This document shows, piece after piece, positions 1,897-52,845 of a stretch of 64,000 nt of DNA. Made by a program: the position numbers and the translations under genes. The stretch is from positions 679 to 64,678 of the forward strand of contig JBHPGR010000003.1 in assembly GCA_042570405.1 (NCBI GenBank). Direction: 5' to 3'. How positions within the stretch are numbered: position 1 is the stretch's first letter; the number at the start of each line of letters is the position of its first letter. The notes under the pieces are model-generated. The model ran no database searches. It was given only the letters and a program-made list of their open reading frames with translations, and had not been told where the DNA came from. This DNA comes from Candidatus Omnitrophota bacterium (GTDB taxonomy: Bacteria; Omnitrophota; Gorgyraeia; Gygaellales; Profunditerraquicolaceae).

Positions 1897-3153
1897 ATGG
1901 TCAAATTCAAAGAAGTACTTAAAAACAGGAATTTTTCACTGATCTGGTTCGGCCAGATCCTCTCGCAGTGGGGGGACCGCCTGGGTCAGATCGCCCTGAT
2001 CGCCTTTGTCTATGAACGCTCACCGGGTTCGGCGATGCAGATGGCCAAGATCCTCTCCTTTACGATCATCCCGGTATTTCTGATCGGTCCGCTGGCAGGC
2101 GTATATGTCGATAGATGGGACAGGCGCTGGACGATGGTCGTCTCTGACCTCCTGCGTGCAATTCTGGTGGTGGCGATCCCGTTGCTTTTGATAGGCAGGG
2201 GGTCAAATATACCTTTGTATGTTATCATATTCCTGGTCTTCTGCATCGGAAGGTTCTTTGTCACCGCGAAACTTGCGATCATCCCGGACCTGGTAGCCCG
2301 GAAGAAGGATCTTTTATTAGCTAATTCCCTGGTTAATGTTACCGGCATGATCGCTGCGGTGATCGGCTTCGGGCTGGGCGGGTTATTAGTAGAATGGTGG
2401 AAGGCCGAAGGCGGATTTTACCTGGATGCGCTCACCTTTTTGATCTCGGCGGTATTGATATTTTTGATCAGGCCAAAGAGGATAAGATTTATGCATCCCA
2501 GGAATCTTGCGATAGAGGGGACAAGGCTGGTAAGCGAGATCAGTAAGTCTGTGATCGAGGAGATAAAGGAGGGGGTGCTTTACCTTTTCAGGCTTAAAAA
2601 GATGCGCTTCACCACCGGCATCCTTTTTCTTCTCTGGTCGGCGCTGGGCTCGATCTATGTCGTCTTTATTATCTTTGTGCAGAACAGCCTTCAGTCAGCA
2701 ACAAAGGACCTGGGGCTCTTGATCATGTTTTTAGCTTTCGGGCTCTTCTTCGGCGCCCTGCTTTACGGAAGGTTCGGCCAGAAGATCCCTTATCAAAAGG
2801 CGATCTTTGCCTGCCTTTCCTTATCAGGTATTGTTTTGGTAGCTTTTACCATTCTCGTAGACAGGTTCCAGAGTTTTTCCCTGGCAGCAGTCTTGGCGAT
2901 GTTGCTTGGAATGGCGGTCTCGCCGATCATGAATATCGCAAATACCCTAGTCCATGAGGCAAGCATTGATCATATGCGCGGCAAAGTCTTTAGCTCGCTG
3001 GAGATAGTAATCCACTTGGCTTTCCTGATCTTTATGTTTATCAGCAGTTATATTGCGGAGCGAGTGGATGCGATGTGGGTGATGATCAGCGTGGGTACAT
3101 TTTTGGCGTTTTTCGGATTGCTTAATCTGTTTAAGAAGCGACAGCCGGCATGA
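1897..3153 (+). CDS. MFS transporter
   Basis: 418 aa, about 12 TM, with an N-terminal NFSLIWFGQ..S.WGDR motif typical of MFS_3/EntS-like transporters. Confidence 0.8.
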   Translation: MVKFKEVLKNRNFSLIWFGQILSQWGDRLGQIALIAFVYERSPGSAMQMAKILSFTIIPVFLIGPLAGVYVDRWDRRWTMVVSDLLRAILVVAIPLLLIGRGSNIPLYVIIFLVFCIGRFFVTAKLAIIPDLVARKKDLLLANSLVNVTGMIAAVIGFGLGGLLVEWWKAEGGFYLDALTFLISAVLIFLIRPKRIRFMHPRNLAIEGTRLVSEISKSVIEEIKEGVLYLFRLKKMRFTTGILFLLWSALGSIYVVFIIFVQNSLQSATKDLGLLIMFLAFGLFFGALLYGRFGQKIPYQKAIFACLSLSGIVLVAFTILVDRFQSFSLAAVLAMLLGMAVSPIMNIANTLVHEASIDHMRGKVFSSLEIVIHLAFLIFMFISSYIAERVDAMWVMISVGTFLAFFGLLNLFKKRQPA

Positions 3154-4520
3154 TCAAGTTAAAGGAGCATAAACATCTTACAGGAGGCCTGCCCATAGAG
3201 AGATTTGCGCCTCCAAAGATCGCTTACATCCCTTTAAGCCAGCACCTGGGAAAGGCCTGCATACCGCAAGTCAGGGTCGGCGACCAAGTATCCCCGGGGC
3301 AGAAGATCGCATCTTGCCAGGCCCATGTCTTTGCTCCGATCCATGCCTCGATATCCGGAAAGGTCACGGGCTTAAGGGATTATCCGCATCCTCTGCTGGG
3401 CCGTTGTAAGGCAATAGTCATCGATGGTGATGGAGAGGACAGGCAGGCCACAGACCATCCCTCGGCTTCGCTTCCCTCGTTTAGCTCGGGACTTCGCGGG
3501 ACAAGCAGAGCGCAGACCGAGATAGATAAGTTAAGCCCCGAAGATATCCGTGGTATCGTAGGTGATGCCGGGATCGTAGGGATGGGGGGAGCGGGATTTC
3601 CTACGCATATAAAACTCAAGCCGCCTAAGCCGGTAGATTCCCTGATCATTAACGGTGCGGAGTGCGAACCGTATCTGACTGCCGATTACTGCCTGATGCT
3701 TGAGAAAACCAGCGAAATCATCTCAGCTGTCGGTCTGATAGTAAGATGTTTAGGCGTAAAACAGGTGTATATCGCGATCGAGGATAACAAGCCCGAGGCG
3801 ATCAAGGCCTTCCAAAGCAAGATACAAGATATCCCTCTGCTTGGTTCGACTTCGCTCACCACAAGTCGCTCGGGAGAGGCGGGATACGAAATACGGATAT
3901 TAAAATCCATGTATCCCCAGGGTGGAGAGAGACAATTAATAAAGAATATCTTAGGCAGAGAGGTCCCTTCCGGAAAGCTCCCTTTTGACGTCGGCGTAGT
4001 GGTGCATAATGTAGCCACGATCTTCGCAGTTTATGAGGCGGTTTATCTTAATAAACCCCTGTACGAGCGGGTTGTGACTGTCACCGGCAGCTGCCTGTCA
4101 ACTCATAAGAATATCCTGGCGCGAATAGGTACTCCGATAAAAGAGTTGATCGGGCATTGCGGCCCCCTGAAGGATCAGCCGGCCAAAATTGTGGTCGGTG
4201 GGCCGATGATGGGCATAGCGCAATGCACGGATGCGGTGCCGGTGATAAAGACTACAAGCGGTATTATTCTGTTAAACAAAAGAGAGGCCGCGCTAAACGA
4301 AGAAGAGGCCTGTATCCGCTGCGGCGCCTGTATCAGAGAGTGTCCGGCGGGCCTGATGCCGTGTCTTTTGAATTTAGCTTGCGAGAAAGAGCTTTGGGCA
4401 CAGACAAAAGACGATTCAGTTTTAGATTGCATTGAATGCGGGGTATGTAATTATGTCTGCCCGGCAAACAGGAATCTAGTCCAGTCAATAAAGAGAGCGA
4501 AGCTGGAGGCGGTAAGATGA
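3150..4520 (+). CDS. rnfC: Rnf electron-transport complex subunit C
   Basis: GIVGMGGAGFPTHIKL, INGAECEPYLTAD, and two C-terminal CxxCxxCxxxCP ferredoxin motifs. Confidence 0.9.
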   Translation: MIKLKEHKHLTGGLPIERFAPPKIAYIPLSQHLGKACIPQVRVGDQVSPGQKIASCQAHVFAPIHASISGKVTGLRDYPHPLLGRCKAIVIDGDGEDRQATDHPSASLPSFSSGLRGTSRAQTEIDKLSPEDIRGIVGDAGIVGMGGAGFPTHIKLKPPKPVDSLIINGAECEPYLTADYCLMLEKTSEIISAVGLIVRCLGVKQVYIAIEDNKPEAIKAFQSKIQDIPLLGSTSLTTSRSGEAGYEIRILKSMYPQGGERQLIKNILGREVPSGKLPFDVGVVVHNVATIFAVYEAVYLNKPLYERVVTVTGSCLSTHKNILARIGTPIKELIGHCGPLKDQPAKIVVGGPMMGIAQCTDAVPVIKTTSGIILLNKREAALNEEEACIRCGACIRECPAGLMPCLLNLACEKELWAQTKDDSVLDCIECGVCNYVCPANRNLVQSIKRAKLEAVR

Positions 4521-7164: not shown

Positions 7165-8025
7165 ATGGATATATTAATTGCGATCTTGAGTTTAGGTTCA
7201 TTGGGAGTTTTATTCGCAGTCAGCCTGACGCTTGCCTCCCGGAAGTTAGCGGTCAAGACTGATCCGCGCCTTGACAAGCTGCAGGAGCTTTTACCCGGGT
7301 CAAACTGCGGGGCCTGCGGAAGCGCCGGCTGTATAGGTTTTGCCGAGTCACTACTTGCAGATAAGACAGTGATTGATGCCTGCCGGGTTTGCGAACAGGA
7401 TGCGAAGCAGAGGATCGCCGGATTATTAGGGAGGCAGCTGGAGAAACAGGTCCGGAAGGTTGCGGTCCTGCATTGCAATGGCGGCAGTAAGGTGAAGGAT
7501 CGGTTCTTTTATAGGGGAATAGAAGATTGCACCGCCGCGAACCTGCTTTTAGGAGGCCAGAAGGAATGCATCTTTGGCTGTCTGGGTTTTGGAACCTGCG
7601 AAAAGGTCTGCCCCTTCGGTGCGATCCGCATGTCTGATCATGGACTTCCGGTCGTAGATGAAGTTAAATGCAAGGCTTGTAATAAATGCATTGAGGCATG
7701 TCCTAAGAAGTTATTCAGCCTGGTTCCGGTAAGCGGTAAGGTCTATGTTGCCTGCGCTTCGCTTGATTCAGGCAGGGAGGTAAAAGCAGCCTGCCCGGTA
7801 GGCTGCATCGCCTGCAAATTATGCGAGAGGGCATGCAAGTTTGACGCTATACATGTTATTGGCCCTTCGGCTGAGTTTACGCTGAGCGAGGCCGAAGCGC
7901 TCAGGGTCAACCTCGAGGGGAATCGAGGGGTTGATAATCTGGCGGTAATAGATTATAATAAGTGTACTTCATGCGGTGAATGCGTGAAGGTCTGTCCTAC
8001 AAAGTGCATTCGGGAGAGGGATTAA
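7165..8025 (+). CDS. rnfB: Rnf subunit B (polyferredoxin)
   Basis: N-terminal TM, GSNCGACG..GC motif, and several CxxCxxCxxxCP clusters. Confidence 0.9.
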   Translation: MDILIAILSLGSLGVLFAVSLTLASRKLAVKTDPRLDKLQELLPGSNCGACGSAGCIGFAESLLADKTVIDACRVCEQDAKQRIAGLLGRQLEKQVRKVAVLHCNGGSKVKDRFFYRGIEDCTAANLLLGGQKECIFGCLGFGTCEKVCPFGAIRMSDHGLPVVDEVKCKACNKCIEACPKKLFSLVPVSGKVYVACASLDSGREVKAACPVGCIACKLCERACKFDAIHVIGPSAEFTLSEAEALRVNLEGNRGVDNLAVIDYNKCTSCGECVKVCPTKCIRERD

Positions 8026-11227: not shown

Positions 11228-12837
<1,610 letters not shown>

Positions 12838-12890: not shown

Positions 12891-12964
12891 CGCGGGGTAG
12901 AGCAGTCTGGTAGCTCGTTAGGCTCATAACCTAAAGGTCAGAGGTTCAAATCCTCTCCCCGCAA
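12891..12964 (+). tRNA. initiator tRNA-fMet (anticodon CAU), no encoded CCA
   Basis: Near-identical in pattern to the E. coli initiator: CGCGGGG..CCCCGCAA with a C1xA72 mismatch, loop CTCATAA, T-loop TTCAAAT. Confidence 0.9.
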
Positions 12965-13130
12965 TAAATATCCGCCAGTTCTCCCGCAAAGCTATTATTT
13001 AGCTGGCGGGATCCCGCCTGATAATTAACTGAGGTGCGGGAAAATCTGCCCCCCGCAACCACTTATAAAAGCCCCAAGGCAATTGAGGGCAGTCCCGAGG
13101 AGCGAAAGTGACGAGGGGCAACCACTTAAA

Positions 13131-20097: not shown

Positions 20098-20317
20098 ATG
20101 AATCTGTCGGTTTTCTCGCTCGGGGTCGGTTTTTTAACGCCAATGATCTTTCGCATTTCGGTGGCTGCTGAACTCGCACTTCGCGCCTCTTGCGCTCCGT
20201 GCTCAAACAGCATCGCCATCCCAAGATTGCCCCGTCGTAGGCGGGGCCTTGGGATTCCCTCAATGCTCAAGCTCCATTGGCTAAAACCGACACTCGCTCG
20301 AAAACTGCCAGATCCAT
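20098..20317 (+). repeat. family A foldback element, copy A1
   Basis: Termini ATGAATCTGTCGGTTTTCTCGCTC .. CGCTCGAAAACTGCCAGATCCAT are inverted repeats. The ends are homologous to copies at 26578-26801 and 36091-36298. Confidence 0.85.
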
Positions 20318-20330
20318 TTTTATTTATGTT

Positions 20331-20519: not shown

Positions 20520-21809
20520 ATGAGAATATTAGTTATCGGATCTGGGGGTAGGGAGCACGCGTTAGTCTGGAAGATCGCGCAGTCGAAGTTGGCTGATAAG
20601 ATCTTTTGCGCGCCCGGCAACGCGGGGATTGCAGAGCTTGCAGAGTGTGTTGATATTAAAGCCGATGATATCCCCCGGCTTCTGGATTTTGCCAGAAGGG
20701 AAAAAATCGATTTGACTGTAGTCGGCCCGGAGATCCCTCTGACCATGGGCATAGTCGATGAATTTACCAAGCGGGGTTTGAAGATATTCGGCCCGAACAA
20801 GAAGGCAGCGCAATTAGAGGGTAGTAAGGTTTTCTCCAAAGAACTGATGGCAAAATATAAAGTGCCCACCGCCGCCTTTAAGATCTTTGATCTGCCTGTT
20901 GAGGCCAATGATTATATTGATAAAATCGGCGCCCCTTGCGTAGTTAAAGCAGATGGTTTAGCAGCCGGCAAAGGCGTAGTGGTAGCAAAGACTGTTGATC
21001 AGGCCAAACAGGCGGTAAATTCGATGATGAAGGATAAGATCTTCGGTGAGGCCGGCAATAGGGTGATCATCGAAGAGTGCCTTGAAGGGGAGGAGGCATC
21101 GATTATCGTATTGACCGATTCAAGGGAGGTCATACCTTTAGCCTCAAGCCAGGATCACAAACGCGTCTTTGATAACGATCAAGGGCCGAATACCGGCGGT
21201 ATGGGTGCTTATTCGCCTGCTCCGGTTGTGAATCCCGGATTATTCAAAGAGATAAATGAGAAAGTAGTAGATCGCACAATCGATGGCCTGGCAAAGGAGG
21301 GCATAGAGTTTAGAGGTGTTTTGTATGCCGGGATCATGATCACCAAAGACGGCCCTAAGGCCCTGGAATTTAATGTCCGCTTCGGGGATCCGGAGACTCA
21401 GGCGATCCTTCCGCGCCTGAAATCAGACCTTTTGGAAGCGATGCTGGCAACCAGTGAAGCTAAATTAGGTAAAGTTGTTAAAGCCGGCGGGCTTAGCTGG
21501 TATGAGCAGGCGTGTGTCTGCGTAGTCTGTGCCTCGGGGGGGTATCCAGGAAGGTATGAGAAGGGTAAGGGAATATCCGGCCTGGACGAGGTATCCAAGA
21601 GTAGAGAGATCGCCGTATTTCACTCCGGGACTAAAAGTGAGGATGATAAGATCGTGACTGCCGGCGGGCGGGTATTGGGTGTGACCGGCTTAGGCGCTTC
21701 TATAAAAGAGGCGATCGATAATACTTATCAGGCGGTAACAAAGATCAGTTTCGAAGGGATGCATTATCGTAAGGACATCGGATATAAAGTATTATCAAGA
21801 CGACAGTAA
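20520..21809 (+). CDS. purD: phosphoribosylamine-glycine ligase
   Basis: MRILVIGSGGREHAL.WK.., ATP-grasp, KADGLAAGKGV. Confidence 0.95.
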   Translation: MRILVIGSGGREHALVWKIAQSKLADKIFCAPGNAGIAELAECVDIKADDIPRLLDFARREKIDLTVVGPEIPLTMGIVDEFTKRGLKIFGPNKKAAQLEGSKVFSKELMAKYKVPTAAFKIFDLPVEANDYIDKIGAPCVVKADGLAAGKGVVVAKTVDQAKQAVNSMMKDKIFGEAGNRVIIEECLEGEEASIIVLTDSREVIPLASSQDHKRVFDNDQGPNTGGMGAYSPAPVVNPGLFKEINEKVVDRTIDGLAKEGIEFRGVLYAGIMITKDGPKALEFNVRFGDPETQAILPRLKSDLLEAMLATSEAKLGKVVKAGGLSWYEQACVCVVCASGGYPGRYEKGKGISGLDEVSKSREIAVFHSGTKSEDDKIVTAGGRVLGVTGLGASIKEAIDNTYQAVTKISFEGMHYRKDIGYKVLSRRQ

Positions 21810-21955
21810 AAATTCTAAATCCTAAATTCGAAATTCTAAACAAATCTGAAATCCCAAACTCTAAACTTAAAACTAAATGTTTAGAATTTATGATTTAGCG
21901 CTTAGAATTTGTTTAGTATTTAGATATTAGAATTTAGTATTTAAGCTTAAGAGGG
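21810..21955. repeat. AT-rich imperfect palindrome built from TTCTAAA/TTTAGAA units
   Basis: About 145 bp of low-GC spacer. The left half is rich in (A)TTCTAAA and the right half in TTTAGAA(T). Centre is near 21885. Confidence 0.5.
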
Positions 21956-21962
21956 AGGCAGT

Positions 21963-22445
21963 ATGAGCAAGATAAGTATAATCATGGGCAGCAAATCGGA
22001 TTTGGGGATAGTTACAGCTGCAATCGATGTATTGAAAGAGTTTAAGGTGGCTTTTGAGGTAAAAGTTTTATCTGCGCACAGGACTCCGAAGGAATTGGTA
22101 AAGTATGTCGAGGCGGCACCCAAAAGGGGCGTCGCGGCCTTTATCGCCGCTGCCGGAGGCGCTGCTGCCCTGGCCGGGGTAGTCGCCGCGCACACTATTC
22201 TTCCGGTGATCGGGATCCCCATTGAGACCAGGAGCCTGAAGGGATTAGATTCCCTGCTATCCACCGTGCAGATGCCCGGAGGAATACCTGTAGCGGGCAT
22301 GAGCATCGGTAAGGCAGGGGCTAAGAATTCCGCGCTATTCGCCTTAGAGATCTTAGGCATTACAGACAAGAAGATCAGGGCAAGGCTTATCTCTTATAAG
22401 AAGAGTATGGGTAAAAAAGTGAGAGCGGTCAAGTTAAAGATATAA
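21963..22445 (+). CDS. purE: 5-(carboxyamino)imidazole ribonucleotide mutase
   Basis: IIMGSKSD, SAHRTP and AGGAAALAGVVAA motifs. Confidence 0.9.
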   Translation: MSKISIIMGSKSDLGIVTAAIDVLKEFKVAFEVKVLSAHRTPKELVKYVEAAPKRGVAAFIAAAGGAAALAGVVAAHTILPVIGIPIETRSLKGLDSLLSTVQMPGGIPVAGMSIGKAGAKNSALFALEILGITDKKIRARLISYKKSMGKKVRAVKLKI

Positions 22446-26577: not shown

Positions 26578-26801
26578 ATGAATCCGGCGTTCTTCGAGCG
26601 AATGTCGATTTTAGCCAAAGCATGCTTGAGCAATCGAGGGCATCCGAACGCGGAAGCATTCGGATGACGAGCATGTTTGAGCCCGTCCTGGCGAAGCCGA
26701 CGGGCGAGTTGCGCAGGAGCCGAGATTGCGAAAGACCTTTGGCGCCCGCCACGATTCATGGCGGGAAAATCGACCCTGAGCGAGAAGAATGACGGATTTA
26801 T
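26578..26801 (-). repeat. family A foldback element, copy A2 (inverted relative to A1/A3)
   Basis: The reverse complement aligns with 36091-36298 over most of its length. Termini ATGAATCCGGCG.. / ..GACGGATTTAT. Confidence 0.85.
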
Positions 26802-29179: not shown

Positions 29180-31530
29180 TGATCTATAAATTTATCGACC
29201 AAAAAGGGACCTTCCTCGTAAAAGATCCCCAAAGATATAATCTTTATTTTCCTCTTACCGATCAGAGGGGTTCATTGCTTAGCTCGATCAGCCCGAATCT
29301 CGCCGGCGATATAAAGCGCGATAACGGACATTTCCTCACCTCTCCCGCAAGCATCGAAGATATAAGGAGTAATCCTCTTTGCCGCCGGGATTTCTTTATC
29401 AAGACCCCGGCTGAAACGATCAGGCTCTCTGCGCCTTATGAGGATACTCTTGAGGCGGGATTGCTATATCATAAGCTCAGCAAAAGAATATTGGGCCTTG
29501 AAATCGAGATCCTTAATTTTATACCGCACAACATTGCGGTTGAGGTTATGCGGGTAAGGGTGAGGAATAATTCAAGAAAGGCTCTCAAGTTTACCCCGAC
29601 ATCCTTTATCCCTCTTTTTGGCAGAGGAGAGAGGAATTTGAGGGATCATCGCCATGTAAGCTCCCTATTTCACCGGATAGAGCTGCAAAGCCACGGGCTA
29701 CTACTTAAGCCGGCAATGGCCTTTGATGAAGAAGGCCACAGGATAAATAAGATGAATTATTTTGTTTTAGGGTTTGAGGGTTCAGGCAGGGCGCCTGTTG
29801 GCCAGTTCCCGACACTTGATTATTTTTATGGCGAAGGAGATATTTTATCTCCCAGGGCAATAGAGGGGAAGATCAAGCCGCTGCGCAGGGAAATCGCGGC
29901 GCTTGACGGTAAAGAGGCTTGCGCAGCTTTGAGGTTTGCGGATAAGCGGCTCAAAAAATCTGAGGAAGCAGAGTACATCCTGATCATGGGGATCGAAGAA
30001 AATAGGGAAAGGATCAAGAAGGACTTTCTTAAACTGAATAACCGGCGTAAGGTGGAGAGGGCGTTTATAGAGACAAAAGACTACTGGCAGAAGCATTCCG
30101 GACGGCGTTCATCCGGCTCTAGCCATAAGGATTTCAATAATTGGCTGATCTGGGTTAGTTTGCAGCCGACCCTGCGCAGGCTCTTCGGATGCTCATTCCT
30201 GCCTCACTTTGATTACGGTAAGGGTGGCAGGGGCTGGAGGGATCTTTGGCAGGACGCGCTTGCCCTGATCATATCCGAACCCGCTAAAGCGAAGAAATTA
30301 TTATTAGATAATTTTAATGGGGTAAGGATAGACGGTTCAAACGCTACGATCATTACCCGCAGAGGAGATTTTCTTGCTGACCGCAACCGGATATCGCGCG
30401 TCTGGATGGATCATGGCGTCTGGCCATTCTTGAGCTTAAATCAATATATAGAGAGGACCGGGGATCTGGGTATCATCTTGAAGCAGGCGGCATATTTTAA
30501 GGATCAGCAGCTGCGCCGGGCAAAAGAGATCGATGATCAATATTCTCAAACAGATCAACTCCTGCGCACGCAAAGGGGGAAGGTCTATAGGGGGAGCATC
30601 CTGGAGCATGTCCTGGTGCAGAACCTGGTACAGTTTTTTAATGTCGGTAAACATAATATCGTCCGCCTGGAGAATGCCGACTGGAATGACGGCCTGGATA
30701 TGGCAGCCAAGAGGGGTGAGAGCGCGGCTTTTAGTTTTATGTATGCGGATAACCTAAAAAGTCTGGCCTGCCTCTTGCAGAGATTACAGGGAAAAAGAAA
30801 GAGCGTCTTCATATTTAAGGAACTAGCCATTCTCCTTGACCGCCTTAAGAGTCCGGTTAATTACAATAGTTATAGAGAAAAGCAAAAGAGGCTGGAGAGC
30901 TATTTCAGTTCTACAAGAAATATCAGCGGTAAAAGGGTAAGGGTGGATCTTGGCGGCCTGATAAATGATCTACAGGAGAAGTCAGGGCATTTATCAGCCT
31001 GGCTGCGCGATAAGGAGTGGCTTGATTGCGGGTTCTTTAACGGCTATTACGATAATCGGGGAAGGCGCGTCGAGGGAAAGTCCGGTAAAGAGGTAAGGAT
31101 GATGCTTCCCACGCAGGTCTTTGCGATCATGAGTGGAGTGGCTACAGAGGCGCAGGTCAAAAGGATCTGGGCTTCCATAGGAAAGTATTTGAGGGATAAA
31201 AGGACAGGGGGGTTCCGCCTTAATACTGATTTTGGCTTTCTTTATACTGATCTGGGCCGGGCTTTCGGATTCTCTTACGGCGATAAAGAGAATGGAGCAT
31301 TTTTCAGCCATATGGTGGTGATGCTCTCCTTTGCCTTATATAAAAGAGGGTTTCATAAAGAGGGTGCCCAGGTCTTGGATTCTATTTATAAGATGAGCAA
31401 AGATCGGCGGGCGCAGATTTATCCGATGATCCCGGAGTATTTTGACAGTCTGGGTAAGGGAAGGTATCTTTATTTGACCGGATCCGCCAGCTGGTATATA
31501 TATACTTTAAATACATTTTGTGATGCTTAA
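29179..31530 (+). CDS. cellobiose-phosphorylase-like (GH94 / COG3459-like) glycoside phosphorylase/hydrolase
   Basis: 783 aa. ENADWNDGLDM and LTGSASWYIY resemble the remembered GH94 catalytic region. The N-terminal F.D..G.F....P pattern is also similar. Confidence 0.55.
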   Translation: MIYKFIDQKGTFLVKDPQRYNLYFPLTDQRGSLLSSISPNLAGDIKRDNGHFLTSPASIEDIRSNPLCRRDFFIKTPAETIRLSAPYEDTLEAGLLYHKLSKRILGLEIEILNFIPHNIAVEVMRVRVRNNSRKALKFTPTSFIPLFGRGERNLRDHRHVSSLFHRIELQSHGLLLKPAMAFDEEGHRINKMNYFVLGFEGSGRAPVGQFPTLDYFYGEGDILSPRAIEGKIKPLRREIAALDGKEACAALRFADKRLKKSEEAEYILIMGIEENRERIKKDFLKLNNRRKVERAFIETKDYWQKHSGRRSSGSSHKDFNNWLIWVSLQPTLRRLFGCSFLPHFDYGKGGRGWRDLWQDALALIISEPAKAKKLLLDNFNGVRIDGSNATIITRRGDFLADRNRISRVWMDHGVWPFLSLNQYIERTGDLGIILKQAAYFKDQQLRRAKEIDDQYSQTDQLLRTQRGKVYRGSILEHVLVQNLVQFFNVGKHNIVRLENADWNDGLDMAAKRGESAAFSFMYADNLKSLACLLQRLQGKRKSVFIFKELAILLDRLKSPVNYNSYREKQKRLESYFSSTRNISGKRVRVDLGGLINDLQEKSGHLSAWLRDKEWLDCGFFNGYYDNRGRRVEGKSGKEVRMMLPTQVFAIMSGVATEAQVKRIWASIGKYLRDKRTGGFRLNTDFGFLYTDLGRAFGFSYGDKENGAFFSHMVVMLSFALYKRGFHKEGAQVLDSIYKMSKDRRAQIYPMIPEYFDSLGKGRYLYLTGSASWYIYTLNTFCDA

Positions 31531-32137
31531 TCGTCGAGAGATAGAAGAATTGATCAGGGATAAGGAGCTCGTCAGCGGTTTTATAGACCTAGATAAACAG
31601 CTGACGCCTAACGGGTTTGATCTTACCGTTGAAAGCATCTTTGAATTTGACGCGCAGGGAGCGCTTGATTTTTCTAATAAAGAGAGAGTTGTCCCGAAAG
31701 GTAAGGCGCTTTCGGCGCGCAAGATTAAAGCGGAAGATAAATTCGGCACTTCGACAAGGCTCAGTGCCGATGGTGAGTCCTTCGACTCCGCTCAGGATGC
31801 TTCGAAGGATGCTGAGCAAGCCGAAGCACAAAGTCGAACCATCGGCTGGTGGGAGCTAAAAAAAGGCGGATATAAGGTCAGGACTAATGAGGTGGTAAAC
31901 CTCTCCAATGACCTGACCGCCCTGGCTTTTGCGCGTACATCTCTTTTAAGGATCGGGGGATTTACCCAGCACGGCGTCTGGGATGCCGGATTCCGCGGAA
32001 AGGGTGAGTTTATTTTGATAGTTGAAAATCCAAATGGCCTAAGGATCAAGCAGAACGCCAGGATCGCGCAGTTGATTTTTTTGCCGATAAAAGAGATCGA
32101 TAAAGGGTACGAGGGGATCTATAAAGAAAGGAAGTAG
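31520..32137 (+). CDS. dCTP deaminase / dUTPase-fold protein with an internal extra segment
   Basis: LTPNGFDLTV, HGVWDAGFRGKGEF and ARIAQLIF: trimeric dUTPase-superfamily motifs. About 33 extra aa sit mid-protein. Confidence 0.65.
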   Translation: MMLNRREIEELIRDKELVSGFIDLDKQLTPNGFDLTVESIFEFDAQGALDFSNKERVVPKGKALSARKIKAEDKFGTSTRLSADGESFDSAQDASKDAEQAEAQSRTIGWWELKKGGYKVRTNEVVNLSNDLTALAFARTSLLRIGGFTQHGVWDAGFRGKGEFILIVENPNGLRIKQNARIAQLIFLPIKEIDKGYEGIYKERK

Positions 32138-32482: not shown

Positions 32483-32538
32483 TTAATTCGCACCTATAAC
32501 TTACTCACGTTCACGCGCTCGTAAGTTATGTGCTCATT
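32483..32538 (+). repeat. family C motif, copy C1 (AATTCGCA box + ATAACTTAC/GTAAGTTAT hairpin + GTGCTCATT)
   Basis: Read directly. Ends 3 nt before ATG 32542. Confidence 0.8.
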
Positions 32539-32541
32539 AAA

Positions 32542-34010: not shown

Positions 34011-35884
34011 GGTTCGCGTAACTGATTCTCCGCATCGACAATATCACGCTTTATTCCACGGATAGTCTCTCTGATCCGCTCCCTTAGGGCAGATGAAGCT
34101 ACCCTGCTCTTATTGATCTCCCGTAAGATCTGCATCCCCATCCGAAAATATCGTACCACTCCTCCTTCGTCTGTATCGGTGAGTTTCAGGATCTTATCAA
34201 AGTCTGTTCCGCGCAGCCACGCTTCTGTGCAGGAGCTTAGATGAAAGTATGGTTTCTTGCTGATTGGGTAGATCCGGTATCTGATCTCCTTTTGTTTTAT
34301 CTGTTTATAAACTTCTTCAGTGACATCTTTTATCTTACGCGCTGCTTCAGAGAGGCGCAATAGGTGCTGGTTCTTACGCGGTTCGAAGACTACCGCGCTG
34401 GCTAAGATCCCCAGCCCGGATTCATCCAGCTCTTCCAGGATATTTCTCGCGTATAGTTCAGAGAGGATCAGTTCATAGCCGTAGACGCTCTTTGCGAATT
34501 GTCCCTTTTTCGTCAGCTCTGAGCCTTTTATATAGCCCCAATCCTTAAGCAGCTTCAGCTTCGCTTCGATCAGCCTGCGTGCCTCCTTCTGCTGGTATTT
34601 CTTATACTGGAAGTAGTGCAGGGAGAGCGGGTAGATCTTAAAGAGGTCTTCTTTGTGTTTTTCATAGAGGTTGAGTATAGTAGCATATGAGGTGTTAAAC
34701 TGGCTCCTTACTTCTTCCGGCCTGCCGTAGATGATACGCTTTACTTCATGGAGCCTTGTTTTGTACAGATTCACCCGGCAGTAGACAAAACCCTCTTTAT
34801 CGATCCCGCGCCTTCCTGCGCGGCCTGCCATCTGGTAGAAGTCGCGCGTTTTAAGGTTACTTACGTAGCGGCCGTAAAATTTCCTTAAGCTATCAAAGAT
34901 CACCGAGCGGCTGGGCATATTGATCCCCAGGGCAAAGGTTTCCGTGGTAAAGATCACCTTCAGGAGGCGGCTGGTGAAGAGCCTCTCGATCACCTCTTTC
35001 AGGGTGGGGAGCATCCCAGCATGGTGATAGGCGATGCCTCTTTTGATCAGGGGATAAATATTGGACGCAGTTTTATCGCCCTTTAGGTCAAAGCGCTCAC
35101 AGAGAGAGTCGTAGAGGGAAGTTATCTTCTGGCGCTCAAGATCATTTAAGAAGTCATGCCCGTAAAGCTCAAAGGCCATGTCTTCGGCGCGCTTACGGCT
35201 AAAGACAAAATATATACAGGGGAGGCCGTCTTTCTTGCGGATGTAGTTTATCAGTGGCTGCAGCTTGTTGGGGCGTCCGTGTCTTAATTTTTTCAGATTA
35301 TCGATTTTGTCCAGTACCTCGTTCTGCCACTGAAAGAAGAAGTGCAGCGGCACCGGCCTTTCATTCTCGATCACCGTCTTCATCGGTTTATCATGGATAG
35401 ACTCCATCCATCGCGCGAACTCCTTTATATTAGGGATCGTAGCCGAAAGCGAGAGCATCTTCATGTGTTTGGGAAGGAAGATCAACGATTCCTCCCAGAC
35501 CGTGCCGCGCTCTTCATTGTCTATATAGTGGATCTCGTCAAAGATCACCCATTGGTATTGCTTAAGGCTATCCGGTTCATCAAGGATCTTGTTGCGGAAG
35601 ATCTCAGTGGTCATGATCAGCACCGGCGCCTGGGCATTCAGGGAGACATCGCCGGTTAGGATTCCGATCTTATCCTGGAATTGCAGTTGGAAATCGCGGA
35701 ACTTCTGGTTGGAGAGCGCCTTGACGGGGGCGGTGTATACTACACCTACGTTATCCCGCAGGCATTCTTTTATCACATGCTCGGCGATAACGGTCTTTCC
35801 GGCCCCGGTGGGAGCCGAGACGATCACCGAACTGCCCTGGTTGATGTGGTCGATCGCTTCTTGTTGAAAACGGTCGTAGATCAT
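34007..35884 (-). CDS. Ski2-like superfamily-2 RNA helicase (DEAD/DEAH box)
   Basis: APTGAGKT, FDEIHY, SAT, HHAGMLP and QMAGRAGRRG. The C-terminal domain resembles Ski2/Mtr4/HelY-type. Confidence 0.85.
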   Translation of the reverse strand: MIYDRFQQEAIDHINQGSSVIVSAPTGAGKTVIAEHVIKECLRDNVGVVYTAPVKALSNQKFRDFQLQFQDKIGILTGDVSLNAQAPVLIMTTEIFRNKILDEPDSLKQYQWVIFDEIHYIDNEERGTVWEESLIFLPKHMKMLSLSATIPNIKEFARWMESIHDKPMKTVIENERPVPLHFFFQWQNEVLDKIDNLKKLRHGRPNKLQPLINYIRKKDGLPCIYFVFSRKRAEDMAFELYGHDFLNDLERQKITSLYDSLCERFDLKGDKTASNIYPLIKRGIAYHHAGMLPTLKEVIERLFTSRLLKVIFTTETFALGINMPSRSVIFDSLRKFYGRYVSNLKTRDFYQMAGRAGRRGIDKEGFVYCRVNLYKTRLHEVKRIIYGRPEEVRSQFNTSYATILNLYEKHKEDLFKIYPLSLHYFQYKKYQQKEARRLIEAKLKLLKDWGYIKGSELTKKGQFAKSVYGYELILSELYARNILEELDESGLGILASAVVFEPRKNQHLLRLSEAARKIKDVTEEVYKQIKQKEIRYRIYPISKKPYFHLSSCTEAWLRGTDFDKILKLTDTDEGGVVRYFRMGMQILREINKSRVASSALRERIRETIRGIKRDIVDAENQLREP

Positions 35885-35885
35885 T

Positions 35886-35964
35886 TAATGAGCAGATAAC
35901 TTACGGAGCGAAGCGAAGTAAGTTATAGCCTGCGCCTCTTAGTTATTTATGCGTCTGCGAATTA
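35886..35964 (-). repeat. family C motif, copy C2 (minus orientation, ends 2 nt before the helicase ATG)
   Basis: Minus strand reads ..GATTAATTCGCA..TATAACTTAC-13nt-GTAAGTTATCTGCTCATTAA-ATG. Confidence 0.8.
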
Positions 35965-36090: not shown

Positions 36091-36298
36091 ATGAATCTAG
36101 CGGTTTTCTCGCTCAAGTCGGTTTTTTAACGCCAAAGTTCTTGCGCTCGCTCGGCTCCTGCGCAACTCGCCCGTCGGGCTTCGCCCAGGACGGGCTCAAA
36201 CATGCTCGTCGTCCGAATACTTCCGTATTCGGATTCCCTCGCTTGCTCAAGCATGCTTTGGCTAAAACCTCCATTCGCTCGAAAACCGCCAGATTCAT
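36091..36298 (+). repeat. family A foldback element, copy A3
   Basis: ATGAATCTAGCGGTTTTCTCGCTC .. CGCTCGAAAACCGCCAGATTCAT. Confidence 0.85.
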
Positions 36299-36321
36299 CT
36301 TTGAAATGGGGCATAAGGCAT

Positions 36322-47509: not shown

Positions 47510-47612
47510 AGAGTAAGGGTTTACCGAGAAGGGCAAACCCTGGGAAATCAGGGGACGCAAAGCTACGGGTCTAAAGGTGGGTTTTCCTTTGTGATTGCCG
47601 GGCTGCCGAAGA
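47510..47612 (+). promoter_or_regulatory. c-di-GMP-I (GEMM-I) riboswitch aptamer
   Basis: GGGCAAACCCUGGGAAAUCAGGGGACGCAAAGCUACGGGUCUAA..CCGGGCUGCCGA matches the remembered GEMM-I core (GGCAAACC, GAAA tetraloop hairpin, GACGCAAAGC, GG.CUAA, closing CCGG..CCGA). Confidence 0.8.
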
Positions 47613-47626
47613 ACCTATCTAAGATC

Positions 47627-47674
47627 GCCGAGTTGCCGAAGAATCTAAAATGGCTTGCTCGGCTTTTATATTTT
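47627..47674 (+). terminator. riboswitch expression-platform terminator
   Basis: GCCGAG..CTCGGC stem with an inner GCC/GGC extension, followed by TTTTATATTTT. TGCCGAAGAA is duplicated between the aptamer 3' side and the terminator 5' side. Confidence 0.65.
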
Positions 47675-52104: not shown

Positions 52105-52789
52105 AGATAAATTCCGCGTCCGCTCTTTAAAGAAGAGTTACGCAGGCCATGCAGAGAAGCTTGAGGTACTCAAAGGCATCGATTTAAGCGTCAGCACGGG
52201 CGAATTTCTCGCTATTCAGGGTCCCTCGGGCGCCGGGAAATCTACGCTTCTGCATATCCTGGGCGGGCTAGACCGCCCTGACAGCGGCGAGGTCTTATTG
52301 GAAGGGCAGGATATTTTCGCCTTAAGTGAGGGCGCGCGTACGCAATTTAGAAGCAGTAAGATCGGTTTTATATTTCAGTTTTATCATCTTCTTCCCGAGT
52401 TGAATGTTTTGGAGAACGTAGCTTTGCCGGGAGTTTTGCGCTCCTGGCGCGACAGGAAAAAGGTAAGAAGCGCAGCAGGCGCGATTTTGGATACCCTGGG
52501 TTTATCCGGACGCATAGATCATCTGCCAAATCAATTATCCGGAGGCGAGCAGCAGCGCGCAGCCATTGCAAGGGCCTTGATAAATAAACCGCAGCTCTTG
52601 CTCTGCGATGAGCCCACGGGAAATCTAGATTCGCAAAACGGCAGGAAGATCATTGATCTCCTGCAGCGGGTAAATAAGAAAGAGAAGATGACCATGGTGA
52701 TGGTGACCCACGACCGGGATATCGCCCAAGCTGCTGACAGGGTGATACACCTGAAGGACGGCAGCATATTTAATCAATTCGCACAATAG
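52097..52789 (+). CDS. lolD: lipoprotein-releasing ABC ATPase LolD
   Basis: GPSGAGKST, LSGGEQQR and LLLCDEPTGNLD. Confidence 0.9.
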   Translation: MSEDKFRVRSLKKSYAGHAEKLEVLKGIDLSVSTGEFLAIQGPSGAGKSTLLHILGGLDRPDSGEVLLEGQDIFALSEGARTQFRSSKIGFIFQFYHLLPELNVLENVALPGVLRSWRDRKKVRSAAGAILDTLGLSGRIDHLPNQLSGGEQQRAAIARALINKPQLLLCDEPTGNLDSQNGRKIIDLLQRVNKKEKMTMVMVTHDRDIAQAADRVIHLKDGSIFNQFAQ

Positions 52790-52828
52790 CTTACTCACAC
52801 TTACGTGTTCGTAAGTTATGTGCTCATT
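52771..52828 (+). repeat. family C motif, copy C3 (overlaps the lolD 3' end, upstream of ilvE)
   Basis: TAATCAATTCGCA..TAGCTTACTCAC..TCGTAAGTTATGTGCTCATT. The last 20 nt are identical to C1. Confidence 0.8.
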
Positions 52829-52845
52829 GAAGGAGGGGTAAGAAG

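Follow-up and report, generated by a model that had tools for sequence, protein, structure and literature searches.

The insert in rnfB

How does a gene for an iron-sulfur protein come to carry, in frame, a stretch of DNA that folds back on itself? The question is raised by rnfB in a window of 64,000 nucleotides (nt) from Candidatus Omnitrophota bacterium (contig JBHPGR010000003.1 of assembly GCA_042570405.1); "the window" means this whole stretch, and positions refer to it unless another locus is named. An original prediction, made from the letters alone, had taken positions 7861-7932 for an extra segment comparable to the Rickettsia palindromic elements (RPEs). To our knowledge, in-frame palindromic repeats in essential genes have so far been regarded as largely a peculiarity of Rickettsia. 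Our analysis leads us to conclude that the segment very probably arose when a small hairpin-forming repeat, itself non-coding, landed in rnfB, where this copy lies in frame and is tolerated. The comparison with RPEs is supported as an analogy, not as homology, by the insertion itself, by the other copies of the repeat, and by nucleotide conservation with compensatory changes in the stems.

The gene closes an operon of the order rnfC-G-D-E-A-B, a synteny conserved in the window and its relatives. Its product (286 amino acids, aa) has the N-terminal FeS domain (PF04060) and several of the 4Fe-4S ferredoxin (Fer4) motifs by which Pfam identifies RnfB, and matches, at 100% identity, an NCBI protein of a Candidatus Omnitrophota metagenome-assembled genome (MAG). 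The top matches in the PDB are the solved RnfB proteins of A. woodii (9eri_B, E = 6.6e-57) and C. tetanomorphum (7zc6_B, E = 3.8e-54), which have the same domain order and cysteine motifs. Where these two make a turn of 1-2 residues, however, the window protein has 26, and its residues 232-256 are without counterpart in either structure. The insert peptide, IGPSAEFTLSEAEALRVNLEGNRGVD, sits between CKFDAIHV and NLAVIDYNKCTSCGEC and joins two beta-strands (one ending AIHV, the next LAVID) of the last, C-terminal 2x[4Fe-4S] ferredoxin domain; every cysteine motif is intact despite it. Orthologues without the insert have an empty site (...GTT ATT GAT AAT...), against which we set the boundaries of the insert; this gives a segment of 72 nt, a multiple of three with the frame intact, as had been predicted. 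The AlphaFold model of the protein is poor (mean pLDDT, the predicted local distance difference test score, of 61); it has strands at 229-232 and 259-263 and pLDDT below 50 over residues 234-257, so modelled, the insert is likely a loop excursion. In the course of events that we propose, the hairpin element would have inserted in frame at this loop and, being a multiple of three in length and landing in a loop, would have left a readable protein. An intein or intron was considered and rejected: 24 aa are far too short, and neither Pfam nor Rfam has such a match.

Architecture and covariation of the element

We compared the window insert with the 48-nt copies found at loci L081, L083, L085-L089 and L214. 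The 48-nt form reads TTGAT-GC-TTCGACTNCGCTCAG-GC-ATCAA-CCC-TGAGCAGAGTCGAA-GGG-TTGAT, and the element in general (T)TGA-x-[TTCGACTNCGCTCAG]-x'-TCA(A)-z-[CTGAGCNNAGTCGAA]-z'-(T)TGA. A conserved loop of 15 nt tops each of two short stems, whose sequences vary, and one loop is the reverse complement of the other; in what follows, motif B is the conserved 15-mer TTCGACTNCGCTCAG and B' its reverse complement. The central TCAA is common to both stems and complementary to the TTGAT on either side. In rnfB the element lies 3' of a TTGAT, and TTGAT recurs at its other end.

Both stems covary. Over seven orthologous copies, stem 1 (alignment columns 14-20 with 35-41) is 95.9% paired and has three double-change pairs, a result reached by none of 500 shuffles; stem 2 is 96.4% paired with two double-change pairs, reached by 2 of 500. 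The alternative of a single long hairpin between B and B' had no covariation support in these copies, and RNAalifold, run unguided, predicts the same two hairpins. Through the compensatory changes, different residues are encoded (A..S, G..T, L..K, P..R), and these replacements track base pairing, not peptide chemistry.

In the window copy the loop of hairpin 2, GAGGGGAATCGA, is a degenerate B', and the direct repeat TCGAGGGG noticed earlier was found within the region of this hairpin (7913-7920 and 7923-7930). Two 7-bp pairings that had been read from the sequence, CTTCGGC (7865-7871) with GCCGAAG (7891-7897) and CTGAGCG (7882-7888) with CGCTCAG (7898-7904), are present at these positions; they are interleaved (A..B'..A'..B) and therefore cannot coexist as nested hairpins. 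The segment had also been described as GC-rich and self-complementary. It is self-complementary, but its GC content is modest (0.60, against 0.49 for the window and 0.64 elsewhere in rnfB). It folds better than expected by chance, not extremely so: z is -2.5 for RNA and -2.8 for DNA, and 2 of 200 shuffles fold equally well.

About one third of the 72-nt segment is secondary and lineage-specific. These 24 nt (7873-7896) are absent from all 11 other insert-bearing RnfB, including that of L214, the nearest insert-bearing relative, which has the derived TTCGGCT variant of the window. They hold the second-best match of the window to a position weight matrix (PWM) of motif B (19.7 at 7882, minus strand) and put B' inside B, in the order B-left, B', B-right, hence the interleaved pairings just described. 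They would be the flanking loop halves duplicated locally in inverted orientation, the window lineage having added a reverse-complement copy of the loop into that loop by template switching at the palindrome; alternatively, they may be a nested insertion of a half-unit.

Conservation as nucleic acid

In a comparison of eight rnfB genes, identity at third codon positions is 0.80 in the insert against 0.455 in the remaining gene, and none of 242 windows of 18 codons equals the insert in this respect. Amino-acid identity behaves in the opposite way, with 0.60 in the insert against 0.72 elsewhere. The rnfB insert is conserved as DNA or RNA, at whatever codon position, and not as protein, and this is, as far as we see, one of two new points: direct evidence of a nucleic-acid rather than a protein constraint on an inserted segment.

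The most conventional reading would be that of an ordinary lineage-specific linker under selection for its peptide, with incidental self-complementarity. The intact frame and cysteine motifs are in line with it, as is the homologous 16-aa segment of some relatives (see below), but the combination of high third-position and low amino-acid identity rules out an ordinary protein linker; besides, the paired, non-conservative changes listed above follow base pairing, and the same 15-mer recurs in unrelated genes and in intergenic DNA. We give this reading practically no credence.

Distribution among RnfB homologues

The homologue set consists of the best 120 RnfB matches, almost all of them from Omnitrophota. 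In 108 of these, two residues (I/V-D) stand where the window protein has 26, and this holds for the closest relative, P0002, which is 86% identical outside the insert. Orthologues therefore do not generally carry the segment (their carrying it had been named as a finding that would speak against the reading), and the estimate of about 20 extra residues, given in the original prediction, is borne out by these 108 homologues and by the solved structures. The 11 other insert-bearing Omnitrophota RnfB share a homologous version of 48 nt (16 aa), placed at the identical codon and with the consensus IDASTALSINPEQSRRVD; the window copy is this 16-aa segment plus the eight further residues EFTLSEAE. 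At L001 just the 3' 21 nt of the rnfB insert are kept. Among the matches listed from a contig scan with the RnfB alignment, most loci were distant ones lacking the insert.

The 12 insert-bearing proteins are dispersed over a neighbour-joining tree (built on 260 residues, with short internal branches and weakly resolved), each beside insert-free sisters. We take this patchy distribution to reflect precise or partial deletion between the TTGAT repeats, possibly with re-insertion. The variant TTCGGCT is common to the window and L214, and P0002, placed between these two on the tree, has no insert; this fits vertical descent with a precise loss in P0002.

The same dispersion invites another explanation, namely that the same-site copies are independent, recent, homing-like insertions from a conserved source, their recency accounting for the nucleotide conservation. 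The stems differ between copies just as they do among family members elsewhere, the putative target TTGAT is repeated at the end of the element, and P0004 and P0095, from different parts of the tree, have identical insert peptides. GIY-YIG enzymes, the candidate partners of the family (see below), include homing endonucleases. The tree on which the scattering is read is nevertheless weakly resolved, the derived variant shared by the window and L214 is that expected of vertical descent, and the element has no nuclease gene within it or close by in these genomes. We consider repeated homing of this kind somewhat unlikely, and prefer a landed repeat with subsequent losses and possibly some re-insertion.

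RnfB has a second site of in-frame insertion, after LVPxxxx, which is not occupied in the window (L088, 8640-8700; proteins P0049, P0063, and P0097). The insert of L088 at this site is a different, near-perfect palindrome, TACCCCGCCCTTTC...GAAAGGGCGGGGTT, which encodes VYP...GGV and is flanked by GTTTA repeats; in other genomes the site reads VYPVR...SNG.

A dispersed repeat family

A PWM scan of the window gave only three scores above the typical best of shuffled sequence (mean 15.2): 31781 (23.4), 7882 on the minus strand (19.7), and 3845 (18.7). Each of these falls in a genic insert, none in intergenic DNA. Apart from rnfB, the hosts are rnfC and a gene of the dUTPase/dCTP-deaminase fold, in which similar segments had been suspected, and both indeed have in-frame inserts with motif B. 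Two lineage-specific in-frame inserts (3444-3500 and 3813-3866) bring RnfC to 456 aa, compared with 422-430 in three relatives; GGTTCGACTTCGCTCACCA of the second insert is identical at 18 of 19 positions to the rnfB insert of L083. The insert of the dUTPase-fold gene is a composite palindrome with the outer arms CCGATGGT and ACCATCGG; it has B-type motifs at 31750 and 31781 and a reverse-complement motif from about 31812, and residues 65-107 of its product have no counterpart in the solved homologue 9w59_A. Its sub-family flanks (GATGGTGAGTCC ... AGTCGAACCAT) recur at L012 (about 12040-12115), an unrelated and apparently non-coding locus; a same-site insertion was rejected there, since the element does not lie in a dUTPase orthologue.

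In the first of the two rnfC inserts (QATDHPSASLPSFSSGLRGTS), the sole resemblance to B is a weak one, CTCGGCTTCGCTTCC, that scores under the PWM threshold. At its place, rnfC of L085 has a shorter extra.

In related genomes the full two-hairpin element also stands at the junction of rnfG and rnfD (L001, about 3955-4030; L087, about 3805-3880), where the window has no copy, and L087 has motif B at one intergenic site. A metagenome scan with the pattern B...CTGAGC found at least 120 contigs, with a GC content of 0.31-0.72 among the matches listed, and the half of these matches that the pattern left unconstrained reproduces TTCGACTNC in reverse complement. Other copies of the motif, whose absence would have spoken against a repeat, are thus present in rnfC, in the dUTPase-fold gene, in related genomes, and in metagenomes. 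Of 121 copies among the matches listed, only 20% fall within long open frames, compared with 59% for random positions, and the hairpin family is therefore mainly intergenic. Clear in-frame copies occur in queA, tilS, and the genes of an Lhr-like helicase, a thioredoxin-domain protein, and a GH57 glycosidase (L095, L153, L168, L191, L209), encoding peptide motifs such as FDSAQ, ERSRS, STPLR, and STSLR. Motif B is free of stop codons in all frames, and the 48-nt form is open in four of six. Sub-families of the element are out of register by one base (alignment A5).

This breadth bears on a purely local origin, in which the palindrome would have arisen by template switching within rnfB and no mobile family would exist. 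Such a process is our preferred explanation for the 24-nt extra, best read as an inverted duplication of the flanking loop halves, and for that part only: the 48-nt core shares its 15-mer and its two-hairpin architecture with unrelated loci and organisms, which contradicts it. For the segment as a whole we regard a local origin as very improbable.

No Rfam 15 match overlapped the copies in the window or those of 20 loci, permissive cut-offs of E <= 1-10 included, and blastn of the consensus element against plasmids and phages gave no match; a scan of viral contigs gave 17 matches, with no GIY-YIG gene among them. Two resemblances were dropped: a hammerhead or other small ribozyme for CTGAGCGA..., the core of which does not fit and for which Rfam was empty, and a tRNA or tmRNA T-arm for TTCGACTCC, because the flanking stems vary.

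GIY-YIG genes as candidate partners

An all-against-all clustering of the open reading frames (ORFs) that surround the copies in metagenomes placed GIY-YIG genes (PF01541) within about 150 nt of elements in L106, L203, L155, and L135. With the GIY-YIG hidden Markov model we found six genes in 0.67 Mb of DNA selected by the motif, against none in 1.41 Mb selected by rnfB plus the window (binomial p = 0.001). Conversely, three GIY-YIG homologues picked irrespective of the motif (from Pedobacter, an Ignavibacteriales MAG, and a metagenome scaffold) all have B-type hairpins on both sides. Many GIY-YIG homologues lie on very short contigs, which is what one would expect of assembly-breaking repeats. 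Among the top matches of 125 flanking ORFs there was no recurrent transposase family, Y1 included, and no parent insertion sequence was found in the 0.67 Mb around 121 copies.

By analogy, the association suggests a partnership of the REP/RAYT kind, in which small GIY-YIG nucleases would spread the hairpin family in trans, as RAYT transposases do with REP/REPIN repeats. In its fullest form the proposal is that the hairpins and the GIY-YIG genes they flank make up a REPIN/RAYT-like system spanning several bacterial phyla, which settles in frame in rnfB, rnfC, and the dUTPase gene and is held there as nucleotides, with compensatory stems, over long divergence. We offer this as a possibility that we judge to fall short of even chances; if true, it would imply that the nuclease keeps renewing the copies or that the RNA or DNA structure has a role in the host. 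A literature search of incomplete coverage found no paper with the motif sequence, with a link between GIY-YIG and REP-like repeats, or with such elements in Omnitrophota, and "undescribed" is therefore provisional; in the literature searched, GIY-YIG is a candidate partner class not previously tied to REP-like repeats.

On the Cloacibacterium-like contig L106 (4300-5150), seven tandem B-type units stand on both sides of a GIY-YIG gene of 104 aa. They read GTGCC-TTCGACAGGCTCAG-GCAC ... GGTGATT-GAG..GTCGAA-ATCACC.

Comparison with known repeat systems

Extragenic palindromic repeats of the REP/REPIN type are reportedly associated with RAYT transposases, as Nunvar in 2010 and Bertels and Rainey in 2011 are said to have described. 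Our hairpin family has in common with them that its units are short hairpins in inverted pairs, mostly extragenic, non-autonomous, and long-persisting, and that they flank a single small nuclease gene. The gene in question is nevertheless different, since the recurrent flanked nuclease is GIY-YIG (PF01541) and no repeat-flanked RAYT (the IS200/IS605-type Y1 HUH transposase of REP/REPIN) was found among 125 flanking ORFs. Conservation in classical REPs, moreover, falls on the stem, whereas in this family it falls on the loops and the stems are variable; we see neither a GTAG nor a CGTC end tag, and some copies sit in frame inside genes.

[quoted passage not shown] The ends of our element are of this type (inverted 15-mers and a (T)TGA(T) repeat, with 2-3 variable bases between repeat and arm), although the repeat could reflect identity of target and element end rather than a duplication. 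The family differs from MITEs in that no parent insertion sequence with matching ends, and thus no transposase, was found for it, and in that the centre of the element is complementary to both flanks.

RPEs are about 100-150 bp long, fall into ten families, and are known from Rickettsia (Ogata et al. 2000, 2002, as summarised in PMC10969869). Like them, the window element is an in-frame palindrome in unrelated housekeeping genes (rnfB, rnfC, and the dUTPase-fold gene; queA, tilS, the lhr-like gene, and the GH57 gene in metagenomes), with a predicted extra peptide that is compatible with the fold of the host protein, and it also occurs in non-coding DNA. Unlike them, it measures 48 nt (72 in the window), has two hairpins with conserved loops, and resides in Omnitrophota and many other environmental lineages; nucleotide conservation and stem covariation are here shown in orthologous copies. 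The resemblance is a functional one, and we claim no sequence relationship. The case extends an RPE-like outcome to a candidate phylum of free-living bacteria and to genes scattered across many environmental bacteria.

Persistence of the insert

Why the insert persists is a question partly separate from where it came from. The hairpins might be kept for a role of their RNA or single-stranded DNA in the host, such as stabilisation or processing of the rnf mRNA or a translational pause before the last Fe-S motif, to which a former element would have been exapted; this is compatible with an origin as an element and differs from our conclusion on the reason for persistence. Nucleotide conservation and compensatory stems are maintained although the host proteins are only about 65-70% identical. 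The non-Watson-Crick pairs are mostly G.T/G.U of the sense strand (TTGGCCC/GGGTCAA in the window, and one-sided changes), the change of TCAA to TTAA in L214 keeps both stems through wobble, and the rnf operon has elements at several places (rnfC, the rnfG/D junction, and close to the 3' end of rnfB). Such a role is difficult to reconcile with the 108 of 120 close homologues that do without the insert, with L001, where half is kept, and with a family that is mostly intergenic, in unrelated contexts and at many GC contents, and that no Rfam family matches. On balance we find a retained host function unlikely, and tolerance of a landed repeat the better account.

Several observations weigh against that account. 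Nucleotide conservation as strong as this within a gene is unlike a decaying selfish insert and points to a host-level function or to repeated renewal. Mobility is unseen, and a single old insertion with later losses could also explain presence or absence at the same site. A search of the 64-kb window for the whole 72 nt (pattern with three mismatches, blastn-short, nhmmer) found no further copy, the family being visible by its conserved 15-mer alone, and because motif B is split and the second loop degenerate in the window copy, its membership in the family rests on the 48-nt orthologous copies. Surface exposure of the insert is deduced mainly from the alignment to solved RnfB, since the structure model is poor. 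As to the enzyme, more than 95% of the elements have no adjoining GIY-YIG gene, and GIY-YIG and transposase genes are absent from the window and from about 1.4 Mb of related loci; with no GIY-YIG gene in the Omnitrophota DNA examined, the mobilising enzyme is a candidate for this organism.

In practice, inserts of this kind inflate and distort alignments and structure predictions of MAG proteins. Their recurrent peptides (STxLS, PE(R/Q)SRR, FDSAQ, LSEVE) may be mistaken for domains by annotators, and the hairpin inserts may mark assembly break points.

Features and other repeats of the window

The features discussed above are collected in Table 1.

Table 1. Coordinates of rnfB, its insert, and the related inserts in the window.
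Feature	Position	Strand	Evidence
rnfB coding sequence	7165..8025	+	ORF list, Pfam, NCBI identity, PDB matches, synteny
In-frame insert of 72 nt (24 codons), diverged copy of the hairpin repeat	7861..7932	+	Protein alignment, DNA against 48-nt copies, solved RnfB
Hairpin 1, 5' arm TTGGCCC; predicted to pair with 7904-7910 with one G.T wobble	7859..7865	+	Sequence, homologous stem, RNAalifold
Motif B, 5' half TTCGGCT (variant of TTCGACT)	7866..7872	+	Comparison with 48-nt copies
24-nt extra, peptide EFTLSEAE; holds reverse-complement motif B CTGAGCGAGGCCGAA at 7882-7896	7873..7896	+	Alignment gap, PWM, inverted repeats
Motif B, 3' half GCGCTCAG	7897..7904	+	Sequence, 48-nt copies
Hairpin 1, 3' arm GGGTCAA; TCAA core common with 5' arm of hairpin 2	7904..7910	+	Sequence, homologous stem, RNAalifold
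Hairpin 2, GTCAACCTC (7906-7914) predicted to pair with GGGGTTGAT (7927-7935), loop GAGGGGAATCGA	7906..7935	+	RNA minimum-free-energy structure
rnfC (3150-4520), in-frame insert of 18 codons, motif B TTCGACTTCGCTCAC at 3845-3859	3813..3866	+	RnfC alignment against three relatives, fuzzy search, PWM 18.7
dUTPase/dCTP-deaminase-fold gene (31520-32137), in-frame insert of about 40 codons	31715..31843	+	ORF, motif searches, PWM 23.4, 9w59_A

The original prediction also spoke of small repeat families in the intergenic DNA. These exist, but they belong to other families than the hairpin repeat. A repeat of about 200 nt occurs three times (20098-20321, 36091-36302, and, inverted, 26578-26744) with 78-90% identity, apparently intergenic or at gene ends, and is unrelated to the hairpin family. 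A different family is formed by a short repeat in three copies (32496-32541, 52786-52831, and, inverted, 35884-35905), with an internal hairpin ATAACTTAC...GTAAGTTAT followed by GTGCTCATTAAA. An inverted repeat of 33 nt, made of AAATTCTAAAT-like units, lies at 21810-21910 between the ORF ending at 21809 and that starting at 21963. A c-di-GMP-I-GGC riboswitch aptamer (RF03167, 69 bits) is present at 47523-47611 on the plus strand, upstream of an ORF starting at 47655. The window further holds tRNAs at 1747-1819 and 12891-12964, the second of which is directly followed by a palindrome at 12979-13044.

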